Source: Vicugna vicugna
Lineage: Eukaryota
Assembly (NCBI GenBank): GCA_013265495.1
Contig: MU058213.1
Location: 5,351,149-5,415,148, forward strand
Direction of reading: 5' to 3'
DNA length: 64,000 nt
Shown here: positions 4,662 through 45,328 of the stretch, piece after piece
How positions within the stretch are numbered: position 1 is the first letter of the stretch
How the letters are laid out: each line of letters begins with the position of its first letter
Notes under the pieces: model-generated
Told to the model about the DNA's origin: nothing
Database searches by the model: none
The model's input: only the letters and a program-made list of their open reading frames with translations
Translations under genes and position numbers: made by a program

Positions 4662-4788
4662 GTCCTTGGATGTGGCTCTGTTGCCCAGGCTGTCCTCAGT
4701 CGAGGACATTTTGGAGGAATCGTCACTATCATTATTGGATTTCCAATGGCAGTTGGGATGGCCATTTATGTGACTGGAGGTGTCTCCG
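4662..4788 (+). CDS. AQP9: Aquaporin-9 coding exon 2 (127 bp), VLGCGSVAQAVLSRGHFGGIVTIIIGFPMAVGMAIYVTGGVS(G)
   Basis: tcccag acceptor and gtaagt donor; translation matches AQP9 TM1-TM2; phase compatible with exon 3. Confidence 0.96.
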
Positions 4789-9528: not shown

Positions 9529-9666
9529 GTGGACACGTCAACCCAGCCGTGTCTTTCGCAATGTGTCTTTTTGGACGGATGAAGTGGGTCAAATTCCCTT
9601 TTTATGTGGGCGCCCAGCTCTTAGGAGCCTTTGTAGGGTCCGCAGTCCTCTTTGGCATTTACTATG
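9529..9666 (+). CDS. AQP9: Aquaporin-9 coding exon 3 (138 bp), (G)GHVNPAVSFAMCLFGRMKWVKFPFYVGAQLLGAFVGSAVLFGIYY
   Basis: ttgcag acceptor and gtgagt donor; contains the first NPA motif (SGGHVNPAVS, MIP signature); not shown in the ORF track. Confidence 0.97.
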
Positions 9667-11042: not shown

Positions 11043-11161
11043 ATGCATTTATGTCTTTTGCTGGTGGAAAACTGCTCATCGTGGGAGAAAATGCAACAGC
11101 TCACATTTTTGCAACATACCCAGCTCCATATCTGTCTCTGGCAAATGCATTCGCAGAACAA
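11043..11161 (+). CDS. AQP9: Aquaporin-9 coding exon 4 (119 bp), (D)AFMSFAGGKLLIVGENATAHIFATYPAPYLSLANAFAEQ
   Basis: ccgtag acceptor and gtaagt donor; loop C with N-glycosylation sequon NAT and the aquaglyceroporin IFATYP motif. Confidence 0.97.
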
Positions 11162-12943: not shown

Positions 12944-13161
12944 GTAGCATCCACCATGTTCCTCATCATTGGTGTCTTTGCCATTTTTGACTCGAGAAAC
13001 TTGGGAGTCCCCAGAGGTCTAGAGCCCATTGCTGTTGGCCTCCTAATTGCTGTCCTTGCTTCCTCTCTGGGGATGAACAGTGGCAACGCCATGAACCCGG
13101 CTCGAGACCTGGGTCCCAGGCTTTTCACTGCTTTGGCAGGATGGGGGTTTGAGGTCTTCAC
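12944..13161 (+). CDS. AQP9: Aquaporin-9 coding exon 5 (218 bp), [10 protein letters not shown]...[30 protein letters not shown](T)
   Basis: ccccag acceptor and gtaagt donor; second NPA followed by RD, the aquaglyceroporin signature. Confidence 0.97.
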
Positions 13162-18084: not shown

Positions 18085-18256
18085 AGCTGGGAACAACTTC
18101 TGGTGGATTCCCGTGGTGGGCCCTTTTGTTGGAGCTGCCATTGGAGGCCTCATCTACGTTGTTTTCATTGAAATCCACCAGCCAGACCCTAACACAGACT
18201 TGGAGGCAGAACCAGAGGACAAACCAGAGAAACACGAACTTAACGAGGTCATGTAA
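18085..18256 (+). CDS. AQP9: Aquaporin-9 last coding exon 6, AGNNFWWIPVVGPFVGAAIGGLIYVVFIEIHQPDPNTDLEAEPEDKPEKHELNEVM*
   Basis: tttcag acceptor; WWIPVVGP TM6 motif; TAA at 18254-18256. Exons 2-6 splice in frame and give 294 aa if exon 1 contributes 37 codons as in human. Confidence 0.97.
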
Positions 18257-38569: not shown

Positions 38570-39650
38570 GCAGCGCGGGACGGGTCCCGCAGGGAGGGAG
38601 CGGCAAAGGAGGACTGGCGCTTGCTCGCTGGGTCTCCCCTCTCCAACTGAGAGGCCAGCGGGACGGAGGGGGAGCCTCCGAGGCTCGGATCTGTACAGAG
38701 CAGCCCTTGTCTGACAGAACTAAGTTAAGCGGGCACAGAGCGTCCCCCCGACGCCCAGCCTGAGACGCGGGCCGGCAGCGGCGGGCAGGGCCAGGCTGCA
38801 CAAGCCGGGCGGAGGACGGGGGCGGCTGCACGGAGGCAGCCCTGGGGGACTGCAAGGGGCTGGGCGCTGTGGCTGTGGGTGTACAGGACAGAACAACCTG
38901 GGCCCTCCATAAAACAGCAAGGTTGATGTGCTCTCGGGGGAAGGGTGCATACCCCCATCTCTGAAAACCCGCGGAAACTTTTCAGGGGAAGAGTGGCGGG
39001 GCCCAGGCAGAGCCGCCATATTCTCCGGCGCTGAGCACCCATGCGGGGGCAGAGGCGAAACCCGCGTCCGCACCGAAGGGCTTAGCAGCCTCAAGGGCCA
39101 GACTGAGACGGGCCTACAGCCCGGGGCAGATAGGATCCTTCCATTCTGGTCCCTCAGAGAACTTGCTCCACAAAGACAAACAAGGAGCTGGGTCTTGGCT
39201 GGGAGCAGGGACGAGGCTGTCCCTCGGTCTTCCCCGAGCCCACCCGCGGAGCGCGACCAGGGCGGAGCGCCGACCAGGGCGGAGCGCGACCAGGGCGGAG
39301 CGCCGACCAGGGCGGAGCGCGACCAGGGCGGAGCGCCGACCAGGGCGGAGCGCCGGCGCAGAGCGCGCAGCCGCACAGAGCAGCGGAGCTACCGGCGGCG
39401 CAGGCAGGGGGAGAGCGGCCCCCCGCCTGTCGGGCAGGAACACAACCCCTGACCGAGGTGCTGGGAAGGGGCACGACCCGCCCTCCTGCCTGGCCAGTCT
39501 GCAACATCTGACTGCGGCATCCGGAGGGGCAGTGACCCGCCCGCCCGCAGCAGAGGAGAGCTGCATCTGACCCCGTGTTAGGAGGAGGCGCGATCTGCTT
39601 GCCGACAGGTGCTGGGAGCAGCACAGAAGAGGGCGCCAACGGAGGGCCTA
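38570..39650 (+). promoter_or_regulatory. CpG-island-like internal promoter of the L1 5' UTR
   Basis: Dense undecayed CpGs, unlike the CpG-poor rest of the window. Confidence 0.85.
39246..39355 (+). repeat. Perfect tandem array: 3 x 33 bp (16-bp gcggagcgcgaccagg + 17-bp gcggagcgccgaccagg) plus a partial unit
   Basis: Direct reading; six GGGCGG boxes at the unit junctions. Confidence 0.95.
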
Positions 39651-40230
39651 TGAAAACAAGCTGAGCTTCCAAAACAGGACGAAGACAGAAGGACTTCACA
39701 TTAAAAGCACACAGACTCCAGGAGAACACCGACAACCCCCTTTTTTTTTTTTTTGTTTTTTGTTTTGCTTTGTTTTGTTTTTTTGTTTTCTGTTTTTGTT
39801 TTTGTTTTGTTTTGTTTTAATCTGTTTTTACCTGTTCTATTTTCAATTACTCTTTTAATTTTTACTTCTTAATTCATTTCTATTTCTCTTGGGTTTTGAT
39901 GTCCTGTTATTGATTAGACACAGGCTTCAAACACATATATTCATCTCCCCACCCCCCTTTTTTTTTTAAAGGTTTTAAAAGGACGTCTCCACCCGATTAA
40001 TACTCTGCTTCAACCCGCTCTTCTATTATTCATTATACATTGTTTTCAAACCCTCTTTCTCCCTTCTTTTAAAAATCTTTCTCTCTCTCTCTTATTTTTT
40101 TCTTTTTTTTTCTTTTTTCTTTTTTCTTTTTTTTTCCTAAGTTCTATTCCTAAATAGGCATTAGATAGATAAAATCCTTAAGATCCAAAATAGACAACTG
40201 ATACTCCATAAACCACAGTGCCAGAGAGGT

Positions 40231-41133
40231 ATGAGCAAGATGAAGAAGCAGAGAAACCTTTCCCAATTAAAAGAACAAGAGGAATCCCCTGAAAGAAAGC
40301 TCAATGAAATAGACATCGATAGCCTACTAGATCAAGATTTCAAAAAAGGAGTGATCAAATTGCTGAAGGAATTAAAAGAGATAATGCTTAGAGAAATAAA
40401 ATATGTCAAAAATGAAATTGAAGCTATAAAGAAGAGCCAAGCAAAATGGGAAAACTCAATGACAGAGATGAGGAATGATCTAACAGCTGTGCAAAGCCGA
40501 CTAGTTAATGCAGAGGAACGAATTAGTGATCTAGAAGACAGGGCAACAGAAAGCACCCATTCAGAAGAACTACAAGATAAGCAAATAAAAAATAATGATA
40601 ATAGCATAAGGGACCTATGGGATAATATAAAGCGTCCCAATCTTCGCATAATAGGGGTCCCAGAAGGGGAAGAAGGATCAAAGGGGATTGAAAAGGTTTT
40701 TGAAGAAATCATGACTGAAAACTTCCCAAACTTAAAGAAGGAATCAGATATCCAAGTACAGGAAGCTCAGAGGGTCCCAAACAGGAAGAACCCAAATAGA
40801 CCCACACCAAGACATATCATAATCAAGATGGCCAGAGTCAAGGATAAAGAAATGATTCTAAAGGCAGCAAGAGAAAAGCAAAGAGTGAACTACAAGGGAA
40901 CCCCCATAAGGCTCTCAGCTGATTTCTCTACACAAACACTACAGGCCAGAAGGGAGTGGCAAGATATATTCAAAGCCCTGAATGAAAAAAAGATGCAGCC
41001 TAGGATACTTTATCCAGCAAGGCTATCCTTTAGGATAGAAGGAGAAATAAAGAGTTTCACAGACAAAAAAAAGCTGCAGGAGTTTAGCAACACTAAACCC
41101 ATGCTAAAAGAAATATTGAAAGGGCTATTCTAA
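40231..41133 (+). CDS. L1 ORF1p RNA-binding chaperone, 300 aa
   Basis: Coiled-coil region, RRM start RPNLRIIGVPE, ARREW and YPARLSF motifs. Confidence 0.97.
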   Translation: MSKMKKQRNLSQLKEQEESPERKLNEIDIDSLLDQDFKKGVIKLLKELKEIMLREIKYVKNEIEAIKKSQAKWENSMTEMRNDLTAVQSRLVNAEERISDLEDRATESTHSEELQDKQIKNNDNSIRDLWDNIKRPNLRIIGVPEGEEGSKGIEKVFEEIMTENFPNLKKESDIQVQEAQRVPNRKNPNRPTPRHIIIKMARVKDKEMILKAAREKQRVNYKGTPIRLSADFSTQTLQARREWQDIFKALNEKKMQPRILYPARLSFRIEGEIKSFTDKKKLQEFSNTKPMLKEILKGLF

Positions 41134-41530
41134 ATAGAAAAGCAGCAGGATGCTACAGAAATGAGAAACGTACAACTGGAAAGGTGATAACTCATGAATT
41201 ACAAATAAAGAAAACACGAAATTATAAAAGAAGACATACAAATCACTGAGAGTGGGAGAGGGAGGCAGGGAAATATAGAATTTTTTTTCTTTCTTTTTTA
41301 AATTTTTTTAACAGTAGGATGGGTTTGAGATCATGTTATTATCAGTTTATTAAAAACGGGTATAGGTTAATAGATTTACAAAAAAGGGTAACCACAAGTC
41401 AAAAATTTACAAGGGAGTCACAAAAATTAAATAAAATCCATGATAATACAAAGGAAAATTACCAAACCACAAAAGGAAGAAGAAAGGAACAAAGAGGATA
41501 TACCAATTCAACTGCAAAGATAAGTTCAAA

Positions 41531-44500
41531 ATGGCAATAAACACACATCTATCATTAATTACTGTAAATGTTAATGGACTAAATGCTCCAGTCAAAAGAC
41601 ATAGAGTGGCAGACTGGATAATAAAGCAAGAACCTTCAATATGCTGCATACAAGAGACCCACTTTAGGGAGAAGGACACATATAGATTGAGAGTGAAAGG
41701 ATGGAAAAGGATATTCCATGCAAATGGAAAAGCCAAAAAAGCAGGTGTTGCAGTACTGATTTCAGACAAAATAGACTTTAAAACAAAGGCCATAAAGAAA
41801 GATAAAGAAGGACATTTTATAATGATTAAAGGAGTGATACAAGATGAAGATATTACACTCGTTAATATATATGCACCCAATATAGGAGCACCTAAGTACA
41901 TACAAGAATTACTAACAGAGATAAAGGGGGATATTGATGGGAATACAATCATAGTTGGAGATTTTAACACTGCATTAACATCACTAGACAGATCTTCCAG
42001 ACAGAAAATAAACAAGGCAACAGAGAAATTAAATACTACAATAGAAAAACTAGATTTGGTGGATATTTTCAGAGCTTTACACCCCCAAAAAATAGAATAT
42101 ACATTCTTTTCAAGTGCACATGGAACATTTTCCAGGATCGATCATGTACTTGGACACAAAAGAAACCTCAACAAATTTAAGAAGATAGAAATTATCTCAA
42201 GCATCTTTACTGACCACAATGCCATGAAACTGGAAATCAACAACAGAGAAACAAAGGAGAAAAAAAGAAAAGCATGGAGATTAAACAATATGTTATTGAA
42301 AAAACAATGGATCAATGAGGAAATCAAAGCTGAAATTAAAAAATACCTTGAGACAAATGATAATGAAAGCACAACCACTCAAAACCTATGGGACACAGCA
42401 AAGGCAGTGCTAAGAGGGAAGTTTATAGCGATACAGGCCTTCCTCAAAAAAGAAGAACAATCTCAAATAAACAAGTTAACCCACCACCTGAATCAATTAG
42501 AAAAAGAAGAACAAAAAGCCCCAAAAAGCAGCAGAAGGAAGGAAATAATAAAGATCAGAGAGGAATTAAATACAATAGAGATTAACAAGACCATAGAAAA
42601 AATCAACCAAACCAAAAGCTGGTTTTTTGAAAAAGTAAATAAAATCGACAAACCTCTGGCCAAACTCACAAAGAAGAAAAAAGAGAGAGCACAAATTAGC
42701 AAAATAAGAAAGGAAAATGGAGAAATTACAACAAACAAAATAGAAATACAGAATATCATACGAGAATATTATGAAAAACTATATGGAACCAAACTGGATA
42801 ACCTAGAGGAGATGGACAAGTTTCTGGAAACATACTGTCCACCAAAACTGAATCAAGAAGAAACTGAACACTTGAACAATCCGATCACTAGAAAGGAAAT
42901 AGAAATAGCAATTAAAAACCTCCCTACAAATAAAAGTCCAGGACCGGATGGCTTCACCGGGGAATTCTACCAAACATACAAAGAAGAACTCATACCAGTC
43001 CTTCTCAAACTCTTCCAGACGATTGAAAAGGAGGGAATACTCCCAAACTCATTCTATGAAGCCACCATCACCCTGATACCAAAACCAGGCAAAGACACTA
43101 CAAAAAAAGAGAATTATAGGCCAATATCACTGATGAACATAGACGCCAAAATCCTCACCAAAATTTTAGCAAATAGAATCCAACAACACATAAAAAAGAT
43201 TATACATCATGACCAAGTGGGGTTCATCCCAGGGACACAAGGCTGGTTCAACATACGCAAATCAATCAATGTAATACATCACATCAACAAGAGAAAGGAC
43301 AAAAACCACATGATCATCTCAATCGATGCAGAAAAAGCATTTGATAAAATTCAACACCCATTTATGATAAAAACTCTCGCCAAAGTGGGTATAGAGGGAA
43401 CATATCTCAACATAATAAAAGCTATATATGACAAACCTACAGCCAGCATAGTTCTCAACGGTGAAAAACTCAAAAGCTTCCCACTAAAATCTGGGACAAG
43501 ACAAGGATGCCCACTATCACCACTCCTATTCAACATAGTCCTGGAAGTCCTAGCCACAGCAATCAGGCAAGAGAAAGAAATAAAAGGGATCCAAATTGGA
43601 AAAGAAGAGGTAAAAGTGTCATTATATGCTGACGACATGTTACTATATATAGAAAACCCTAAAAGGTCCACAAAAAAGCTACTAGAGCTGATCGAAGAAT
43701 TCAGCAAGGTAGCAGGTTACAAAATTAATGTTCAAAAATCAGTTGCCTTTCTTTACACTAACGATAAATCAACAGAAAAAGAAAGTAAAGAAACAATCCC
43801 CTTTAAAATAGCACCCAAAGTAATAAAATATCTGGGAATAAATCTAACCAAGGAGGTGAAAGAATTATACACAGAAAACTATAAACCATTGATGAAGGAA
43901 ATTAAAGAAGACTTTAAAAAATGGAAAGATATTCCATGCTCTTGGATTGGAAGAATCAATATTGTTAAAATGGTCACACTGCCCAAGGCAATCTACAGAT
44001 TTAATGCAATCCCTATCCAATTACCCAGGACATATTTCACAGAACTAGAACAAATCATAATAAAATTTATATGGAACCATCAAAGACCTAGAATTGCTAA
44101 AGCATTACTGAAGAGAAAGAAAGAGGCTGGAGGAATAACTCTCCCAGACTTCAGACAATACTATAGAGCTACAGTCATCAAGACAGCATGGTATTGGTAC
44201 CAAAACAGACATATAGACCAATGGAACAGAATAGAGAGCCCAGAAATGAACCCACAAACTTTTGGTCAACTCATCTTCGACAAAGGAGGCAAGAATATAC
44301 AATGGAATAAAGACAGTCTCTTCAGCAAATGGTGTTGGGAAAACTGGACAGCAGCATGTAAAACAATGAAGCTAGAACACACCCTTACACCATATACAAA
44401 AATCAACTCAAAATGGATTAAAGACTTAAACATAAGACAAGATACAATAAACCTCCTAGAGGAAAACATAGGCAAAACATTATCTGACATACATTTCAAA

Positions 44501-45328
44501 AATTTTCTCCTAGAAGAAATAAAAGCAAGAATAAACAAATGGGACCTAATGAAACTTACAAGCTTCTGCAGAGCAAAGGAAACCAGAAATAAAACAAGAA
44601 GAAAACCTACGGAATGGGAGAAAATTTTTGCAAGTGAAACCGACAAAGGCTTGATCTCCAAAATATATAAGCAGCTCATACGACTCAATAAGAAAAAAAT
44701 AAACAACCCAATCCAAAAATGGGCAGAAGACCTAAACAAGCAATTCTCCAAGGAAGACATACAAATGATCAAAAAGCACATGAAAAAATGTTCAATATCA
44801 CTAATTATCAGAGAAATGCAAATCAAAACTACAATGAGGTATCACCTCACACCAGTCAGAATGGCCGTCATTCAAAAATCCAAAAATGACAAATGCTGGA
44901 GAGGCTGTGGAGAAAGGGGAACCCTCCTACACTGCTGGTGGGAATGCAGTTTGGTGCAGCCACTATGGAAAACAGTGTGGAGATTCCTCAAAAGACTAGG
45001 AATAGACTTACCATATGACCCAGGAATCCCACTCCTGGGCTTGTACCCAGAAGGAAATCTACTTCAGGATGACACCTGCACCCCAATGTTCATAGCAGCA
45101 CTATTTACAATAGCCAAAACATGGAAACAGCCTAAATGTCCATCAACAGGTGACTGGATAAAGAAGATGTGGTATATTTATACAATGGAATACTACTCAG
45201 CCATAAAAACCGACAACATAATGCCATTTGCAGCAACATGGATGCTCCTAGAGAATGTCATTCTAAGTGAAGTAAGCCAGAAAGAGAAAGAAAAATACCA
45301 TATGAGATCGCTCATATGTGGAATCTAA
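41531..45328 (+). CDS. L1 ORF2p endonuclease/reverse transcriptase, 1265 aa
   Basis: APE motifs NVNGLN, IQETH, GDFNT, RIDH, TDH; RT motifs RQGCPLSP and YADD; C-terminal CWRGC...HCWWEC; no stops. Confidence 0.99.

Follow-up and report, generated by a model that had tools for sequence, protein, structure and literature searches.

The AQP9 locus and codon 213

The window, by which we mean the whole 64-kb stretch of Vicugna vicugna DNA that was analysed, carries exons 2-6 of AQP9, with AG at the acceptors, GT at the four donors and a TAA stop at 18254-18256; no neighbouring protein gene was identified within these 64 kb. Exon 1 lies 16.8 kb upstream of the window (G000:C1645:5334352) and contributes 111 coding bases followed by GT. 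The AQP9 features of the window are:

4662..4788, + strand, AQP9 exon 2, 127 bases
4671..4673, + strand, codon 41, Cys, kept; candidate alternative thiol-reagent site (PMC10340331)
4731..4733, + strand, codon 61, ATT, Ile, in helix 2, three residues ahead of ar/R Phe64; Asn in most mammals; partner site of 213 (compare AQP3 Asn60, PMC12722722)
4740..4742, + strand, codon 64, Phe, ar/R helix-2 position, unaltered
9529..9666, + strand, AQP9 exon 3, 138 bases
9540..9548, + strand, first NPA box, unaltered
11043..11161, + strand, AQP9 exon 4, 119 bases
12944..13161, + strand, AQP9 exon 5, 218 bases, holding codons 201, 204 and 213 and NPARD
13049..13051, + strand, codon 201, GCT, Ala, in helix 5; camelid-only among tetrapod rows (0/171), found in 9/120 fish rows (best 120 of 5,743); coupling with 61 or 213 unsupported
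13058..13060, + strand, codon 204, GCT, Ala (Thr in Camelus records), ar/R helix-5 position; top co-varying partner of 213
13085..13087, + strand, codon 213, AAC, Asn, ar/R loop-E position (LE.47); Cys in other tetrapod AQP9
13094..13108, + strand, second NPA box with Arg219 and Asp220 (NPARD), unaltered; NPA itself at 13094-13102
18085..18256, + strand, AQP9 exon 6, coding part up to the stop; camelid-private Gln270 at 18179-18181

The original prediction had read 13085-13087 as residue 213 of AQP9, and the count is exact: the codon is AAC, in frame ([15 protein letters not shown]), and the coding bases of exon 1 added to the sizes of the following exons place it precisely there. Translation of exons 2-6 matches the named Vicugna pacos record P0124 with 0 mismatches, and this record, identical to the window over these exons, is recovered by the MIP family profile PF00230 (E 4.7e-49) with both NPA boxes present. 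An Asp following the second NPA-Arg (NPARD) is an aquaglyceroporin signature. Here Arg219 and Asp220 are in place and residue 204 is Ala, so that the ar/R helix-5 position is without His, as is characteristic of aquaglyceroporins (PMC6937295). The named entries in the best 120 of 473 matches are AQP9-type vertebrate proteins of 73-97% identity, some such matches being auto-labelled 'Aquaporin-3' by UniRef or 'hypothetical', and the paralogue exons of the same genome are 47-64% identical to the AQP9 exon. A genome search found a single AQP9 locus, the other strong exon-5 matches being AQP3, AQP7 and an AQP10 remnant.

Judged by its sequence, the gene is an intact, single-copy AQP9, an aquaglyceroporin of the MIP family, which lacks only the Cys213 trait of tetrapods: where the tetrapod AQP9 ar/R type reads F, A/S/T, C, R, Asn stands in place of Cys. 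As fish AQP9 has Tyr at this position, we regard Asn213 as a variant filter rather than the mark of a different family. Nor is the protein of the mercurial type of aquaporin, with Cys at LE.47 as in AQP1 Cys189, since Asn213 occupies that position; Cys41 stays.

Structure predictions for camelid AQP9 (mean pLDDT 78.6, pTM 0.80) and for a pig AQP9 control (mean pLDDT 77.8) give the same helices and near-equal pLDDT at residues 201-220 (camelid 74/74, pig 74/72), a comparison of helices and confidence scores only, which holds no side-chain information. A fold search matched AQP3, AQP7, AQP10 and GlpF only (Foldseek TM to target 0.90-0.96 for AQP3 chains), and no AQP9 entry was found among the solved-structure sequences. 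In the alignment to solved structures Asn213 of AQP9 falls on Tyr212 of AQP3 (AQP9 n being AQP3 n-1, ungapped here), and the equivalence of the position to GlpF Phe200 is given in the literature (PMC11926279, PMC6937295), which bears out its assignment to the loop-E part of the ar/R constriction. Generic aquaporin positions were taken from PMC10010469, where the only human AQP9 variant given for the site is Cys-to-Trp.

Several other residues of the gene deserve mention. Pro65 (4743-4745), directly after ar/R Phe64, occupies the family's conserved helix-2 Gly position (2.50), as it does in pig and 15/156 other rows. Gln270 (18179-18181), at the C-terminal end of helix 6 and far from the filter, replaces a His found in 34/34 other mammals and in 113/119 fish rows with a residue there. 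In exon 1 (L007:753-863) Thr26 and Leu30 are found here and in P0124, and Met26 and Phe30 in Vicugna P0122, an apparent variation within South American camelids beside the conserved Glu29. Trp12 is camelid-only (0/142 other rows).

Distribution of Asn213

Asn213 is present in all five camelid protein records from two genera (Vicugna P0122 and P0124; Camelus P0002, P0003 and P0123), one of the Camelus records being named for C. dromedarius and C. ferus and representing three Camelus taxa in UniRef. Outside the camelids, Cys213 is found in 118/118 proteins (best 120 of 473 matches). When cluster members are added to these 120 matches and rows of <160 residues are dropped (3/185 proteins out, including the query exon), Cys213 is found in 174/174 non-camelid rows with a residue there (177 rows, Xenopus to whales, pig and ruminants); these rows are clusters and isoforms, redundant rather than independent species. 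The alignment that the original prediction had proposed, over Camelus, Vicugna, pig, ruminants and whales, gives Asn in camelids only and Cys in the others, and the residue is not common in mammalian AQP9. That Cys is the normal AQP9 residue needs qualification, as the site is not invariant across AQP9: fish Aqp9a/b have Tyr in 119 rows and Phe in 1 (best 120 of 5,743 matches), mostly together with Gly204 and His61. In the distant representatives (146 with a residue there, best 150 of 12,898) the position holds Tyr 48, Ala 27, Phe 26, Cys 14, Ser 10, Gly 9, Val 4, Pro 4, Asn 3 and Leu 1. By these counts Asn213 is rare yet present in the wider family, and unique among the vertebrate AQP9 rows compared. 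Compared without a rooted tree, the filter pair is Gly204/Tyr213 in ray-finned fish (P0197, P0336-P0454) as against Ala, Ser or Thr204/Cys213 in tetrapods.

That an artefact, a mix-up of paralogues or a decaying gene lies behind Asn213 is very improbable. The five records of two genera all agree, with Cys or Tyr elsewhere, and Cys213Asn is therefore to be regarded as a change on the camelid stem and not as an error, in line with the original prediction. Against a mix-up stands the single AQP9 locus, the other strong matches of the genome being assigned to AQP3, AQP7 and the AQP10 remnant, and against decay the open frame, the canonical splice sites and the intact NPA, NPA and Arg. Among sequencing runs, 14 DNA runs of 4 organisms contain all 21 sampled words of exon 5, all 14 being possible sources of the same DNA, and the contigs assembled from 2/4 runs, both likewise possible sources of the same DNA, span codon 213 with 0 other letters. 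Six RNA-type runs contain 0.43-0.52 of the exon 5 words; the two RNA-type runs among the four assembled gave no contig and hence no direct RNA support, a point that an artefact reading could draw on, although the RNA runs were counted neither for nor against. The full-length Camelus protein P0003, however, is also found in Logan assemblies of sequencing runs, and as the gene is split by introns, a spliced transcript would be implied. The Asn213 observation is real.

Two further ideas regarding the codon were rejected. A one-step origin by a 3-base inversion within the flanking 4-base inverted repeat (tggc/gcca) fails because a Cys codon, once inverted, would encode Thr or Ala and not Asn; stepwise routes through Ser or through a fish-like Tyr codon fit equally. 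No glycosylation site is created either, as Asn213-Ala-Met is no sequon, the sole sequon being at Asn142, as in human.

Lineage-specific residues are also seen at or beside other filter positions. The second ar/R position is split by genus, with Ala204 in Vicugna (13058-13060) and Thr204 in Camelus (P0002, P0003, P0123), the resulting Camelus filter F-T-N-R being more polar. Hippopotamus AQP9 (P0079, P0081) has Ser for Gly212, adjoining Cys213, where 35/35 other mammals have Gly, along with G190D and E192A, and hence displays a second lineage-specific loop-E change. An Orcinus orca AQP9 record (P0160) has Leu in place of ar/R Phe64; V68I and M129L are common to all cetacean rows.

A second camelid change at position 61

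Asn213 had been treated as a lone change; it is accompanied by N61I at a coupled site. In a set of 36 mammals the camelid-private AQP9 residues are N61I, F100V, V201A, C213N and H270Q only. Ile61 is found in 0/157 other tetrapod rows, which have Asn (133), Ser (18), Tyr (3) or one each of His, Glu and Thr, and in 0/120 fish rows (best 120 of 5,743). Position 61 varies in tetrapod rows while Cys213 is kept, Ser61 with Cys213 being common in those of birds and reptiles.

We examined co-variation in 130 of the best 150 (of 12,898) distant aquaglyceroporin representatives, namely the rows covering 61, 213 and >70% of the columns. By APC-corrected mutual information the pair 61-213 ranks 28 of 29,161 (z 4.9), with 213 as the top partner of 61 over the 130 rows. 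As positive controls, the same test places 204-213 at rank 1 and 164-210, the counterpart of the Asp163-Asn209 hydrogen bond described for AQP3, at rank 7. Leaving out the rows that most resemble human AQP9 puts 61-213 at ranks 19-91; weighting the sequences gives 12-254, and 30 subsamples give 12-233. A tree-based count over 15 independent pairs finds N61 and Y213 associated 7.2 times, as against 0.3 (median p 0.016, range 0.002-0.375), for a trait picked after viewing the pair table. The 4 private sites in the scored range form 6 pairs, and the chance that any of these reaches such a rank is 0.6%; it is 25% if the 25 differing sites are counted instead. The camelid pair I61 with N213 occurs in none of the 130 distant rows: position 61 is Phe, Ser or Pro in the 3/146 distant rows with Asn213 (best 150 of 12,898), and the single retained distant row with Ile61 has Cys213.

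In the solved AQP3 structure the equivalents of positions 61 and 213, Asn60 and Tyr212, are neighbours. For peroxide-bound closed AQP3, one H2O2 is described as forming bonds with the backbone N of Tyr212, the side chain of Asn60 and the carbonyl of Val199 (PMC12722722), and a docking study places Asn60 in an AQP3 pocket with Phe63, Gly211, Tyr212 and Arg218 (PMC7175779).

An Ile swap between 61 and 201, suggested by helix register, was rejected, as position 201 shows no co-variation with 61 (rank 7,443) or with 213 (rank 25,449). So was a general camelid change of aquaglyceroporin filters, given that AQP3 and AQP7 of the same genome retain Asn where AQP9 has position 61 and Tyr where it has position 213.

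Evolutionary rates

Over residues 20-270 the camelid stem measures 0.109 substitutions per site, as compared to 0.077 for whales, 0.051 for Suina and 0.039 for Pecora, and the two camelid crown branches measure 0.010 and 0.012; these lengths were obtained on a preset species topology, with the Diceros and Ursus rows kept despite aberrant N-terminal stretches that inflate their branches. The lengths fit a putative change on the camelid stem and constraint thereafter, and nothing in them points to decay; such a pattern does not in itself amount to positive selection. A general relaxation of camelid AQP9 was rejected, since its root-to-tip length is unremarkable (0.118-0.120 in a range of 0.079-0.147).

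A long stem could also accumulate the changes by drift. If only the backbone of residue 213 matters, Asn213, Ile61 and Ala201 would have been fixed separately and nearly neutrally, with neither compensation nor functional effect. We consider this unlikely: no other tetrapod row leaves Cys213 (174/174) and none has Ile61 (0/157), and both changes fall on one branch, at a pair that is coupled across the family. What speaks for drift is the presence of ten residue types at 213 in the 146 distant rows (best 150 of 12,898), the normal behaviour reported for human AQP9 C213A (PMC10340331), the odd residues found elsewhere too at columns conserved to at least 90% (camelids 8, other cetartiodactyl tips 5-6, Mus 14) and the Hippopotamus G212S change, which adjoins the site.

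A proposed compensated amide swap

We propose, with a probability that we put at about 0.5, that camelid AQP9 is an ordinary intact aquaglyceroporin in which Cys213Asn and Asn61Ile constitute a compensated amide swap, its function as a glycerol, urea and water channel being kept. We favour this reading because 61 and 213 co-vary and because their AQP3 equivalents are bridged by one small molecule; it is further supported by constraint after the change, as seen in the short crown branches and in the lack of any difference between the genera at 61, 64, 213 and 219. The ar/R wall would have been rebuilt locally and once, on the camelid stem, and then retained in Camelus and Vicugna. The amide lost from helix 2 with Asn61 would be supplied from loop E by Asn213, the side chain of which would lie in a niche between helices 2 and 5, before Ala/Thr204. 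The backbone of the loop-E residue lines the pore in aquaporin structures generally, and the backbone carbonyl of Asn213 would continue to do so. As such a swap keeps the filter wall in place, glycerol, urea and water would still pass, with at most a modest change in rate, and thiol reagents would lose one of several sites. A wall rebuilt without a change of job seems most likely; the glycerol-urea preference may shift.

The site appears tolerant of change, since human AQP9 C213A is reported to have normal water and glycerol permeability (PMC10340331) and fish rows have Tyr there, zebrafish Aqp9a/9b being described as passing glycerol and urea (PMC2829555); zebrafish itself was not identified among the fish rows carrying Tyr213 (best 120 of 5,743). 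Two limits apply to the swap. Across the family the signal links N61 to Y213 and not I61 to N213, and coupling does not equal unchanged function. Further, the AQP3 contact is one of a closed, loop-E-collapsed state and is made via the 212 backbone, not its side chain.

Alternatively, the Asn213 amide may face the pore and break the hydrophobic corner that Phe64 and residue 213 offer to the carbon face of glycerol, thereby favouring urea, and perhaps H2O2 or ammonia, over glycerol, with Ile61 making the vestibule wall above less polar; selection would have kept the change, possibly for hepatic or gut urea handling in an AQP10-less foregut fermenter. We regard such a retuning as possible but tentative. 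The presence of Cys213 in 174/174 tetrapod rows points to constraint on the site, in which two base changes were nevertheless fixed. No internal cetartiodactyl branch is longer than the camelid stem (0.109, against the 0.077, 0.051 and 0.039 given above); however, the stem is also long in time, and the camelid root-to-tip length lies within the cetartiodactyl range. In paralogues, AQP3 Y212A is reported to halve glycerol flux and gain urea, with glycerol proposed to be disfavoured by an additional hydrogen-bonding site in the corner (PMC6937295), AQP3 Y212T to be faster for glycerol (PMC11926279), and eel Aqp10.2b with Y-to-G to gain urea and boric acid permeability (PMC12492003). These effects came from removal of an aromatic ring, whereas Cys-to-Asn is a small change in size, and C213A remains normal for water and glycerol (PMC10340331).

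AQP10 is described as a pseudogene in all camelids examined, which would suit a retuned AQP9; the same is described for bovids, deer, hippos and whales (bioRxiv 10.64898/2026.09.20.752922). Cys213 is nevertheless kept in cattle and in the other three AQP10-less groups, and we therefore reject a necessary link between the two changes. The AQP10 remnant of this genome (L004; G000:C10312:2055452-2058607, - strand) has an apparently frameshifted exon 3 and the loop-E motif NPAQD, without the filter Arg.

In its strongest form the selective proposal would make camelids the only known tetrapods with an amide in the AQP9 ar/R constriction, where the two-site swap (Asn61 to Ile, Cys213 to Asn) renders the liver glycerol channel urea-biased and less thiol-sensitive, selection having fixed it on the same stem that saw the loss of AQP10. 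This appears doubtful to us. Were the urea-biased reading true, camelids would offer a natural experiment in which polarity of the filter, besides size, sets the preference between glycerol and urea, and helix-2 position 61 would be a fifth filter determinant. The urea-to-glycerol ratios given for the human proteins are 0.84 for AQP9 and 1.29 for AQP10 (PMC6937295).

Mercurial sensitivity and camelid physiology

The original prediction further held that Asn213 removes a mercurial target, a claim weakened by the behaviour of the human protein: pCMBS and BMTS are reported to inhibit the water permeability of C213A as they do that of the wild type, and inhibition of its glycerol permeability is reported to be only reduced, with Cys41 and Cys43 proposed as further thiol-reagent sites (PMC10340331). 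Camelid AQP9 retains cysteines at 41 and 92 only, as against four in human, and has Ser43 as in 97 other rows. A partial, not full, loss of thiol-reagent sensitivity is to be expected on this analysis.

The appeal to camelid water economy is weak. Asn213 is common to Vicugna and Camelus and therefore predates their split, and is not a trait of desert camels; ELISA is reported to give very low AQP9 levels in dromedary kidney (PMC11328374). For a role of AQP9 in the liver the source is a review (PMC9313442), not camelid data. Thus, the gene, the residue, its position, its origin and its rarity stand as originally proposed, and the parts concerning mercurials, water economy and a lone change are weakened; a shift in selectivity, also put forward there, is possible.

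Comparison with known aquaglyceroporins

Camelid AQP9 shares with other tetrapod AQP9 (human O43315, pig NP_001106154, cattle NP_001192762) the six exons, NPA/NPARD, Phe64, a small residue 204, Arg219 and the sequon at Asn142, and is 79% identical to human AQP9 over 295 columns. It differs from them in its ar/R set, F-A(T)-N-R rather than F-A/S/T-C-R, in Ile61 for Asn, in Ala201 and in having two cysteines rather than the four of human. With AQP3 and AQP7 (PDB 8Y8N, 9QSX, 6QZI) and teleost Aqp9a/b it has in common the fold and the use of this position as the loop-E ar/R residue; unlike the camelid protein, these pair Gly204 with Tyr213 (G-Y in 111/120 fish rows, best 120 of 5,743), with Asn (AQP3, AQP7) or His (fish) at 61. 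Tyr212 of AQP3 is described as plugging the closed pore, into which Y212T does not insert (PMC11926279), and the camelid Asn, being without an aromatic ring, is not expected to act as a plug.

Eel Aqp10.2b2/b3, with Y-to-G at ar/R position 3 (PMC12492003), likewise represent a change at this filter position that arose naturally in one lineage. The eel change followed a duplication, lost the ring and widened selectivity in oocytes, whereas the camelid change is small-to-polar, in a single-copy gene, and known from sequence alone. The engineered human C213A (PMC10340331) also lacks the thiol at 213; however, Ala adds no amide, Asn61 is kept, and the normal water and glycerol permeability was measured for Ala, not Asn.

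We found no prior report of camelid Asn213 among the matches listed, a search with subscription journals mostly outside its scope; supplementary substitution tables could list it. The AQP9 sequences are already public and annotated, and the camelid change amounts to a point variant in a channel that is well known; it does not define a new system. The determinants of the glycerol-versus-urea preference of aquaglyceroporins are still debated, between pore size on one side and chemistry and context on the other (PMC6937295). The published changes found at this position remove or shrink an aromatic ring, and the camelid case brings in an amide, fixed in nature, along with a second site that co-varies with it. 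Hence, the pair offers a clean test of polarity and of position 61 as part of the filter. A shifted ratio would be relevant to how camelids recycle urea and use glycerol in the liver, and to the use of AQP9 inhibitors and thiol reagents in these animals; an unchanged one would mean that a residue invariant across tetrapod rows is dispensable once its neighbour changes.

A LINE-1 element downstream of AQP9

About 21 kb downstream of the AQP9 stop the window also carries a LINE-1 (~39,000-45,328, + strand) that looks young and has both frames open:

40165-41133, + strand, LINE-1 ORF1, 322 aa stop to stop, with L1 RBD, dsRBD and trimer Pfam domains
41447-45328, + strand, LINE-1 ORF2, 1,293 aa, with endonuclease and reverse transcriptase

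The stretch ahead of these ORFs is GC-rich and contains a 17/33-base tandem repeat at 39246-39355.
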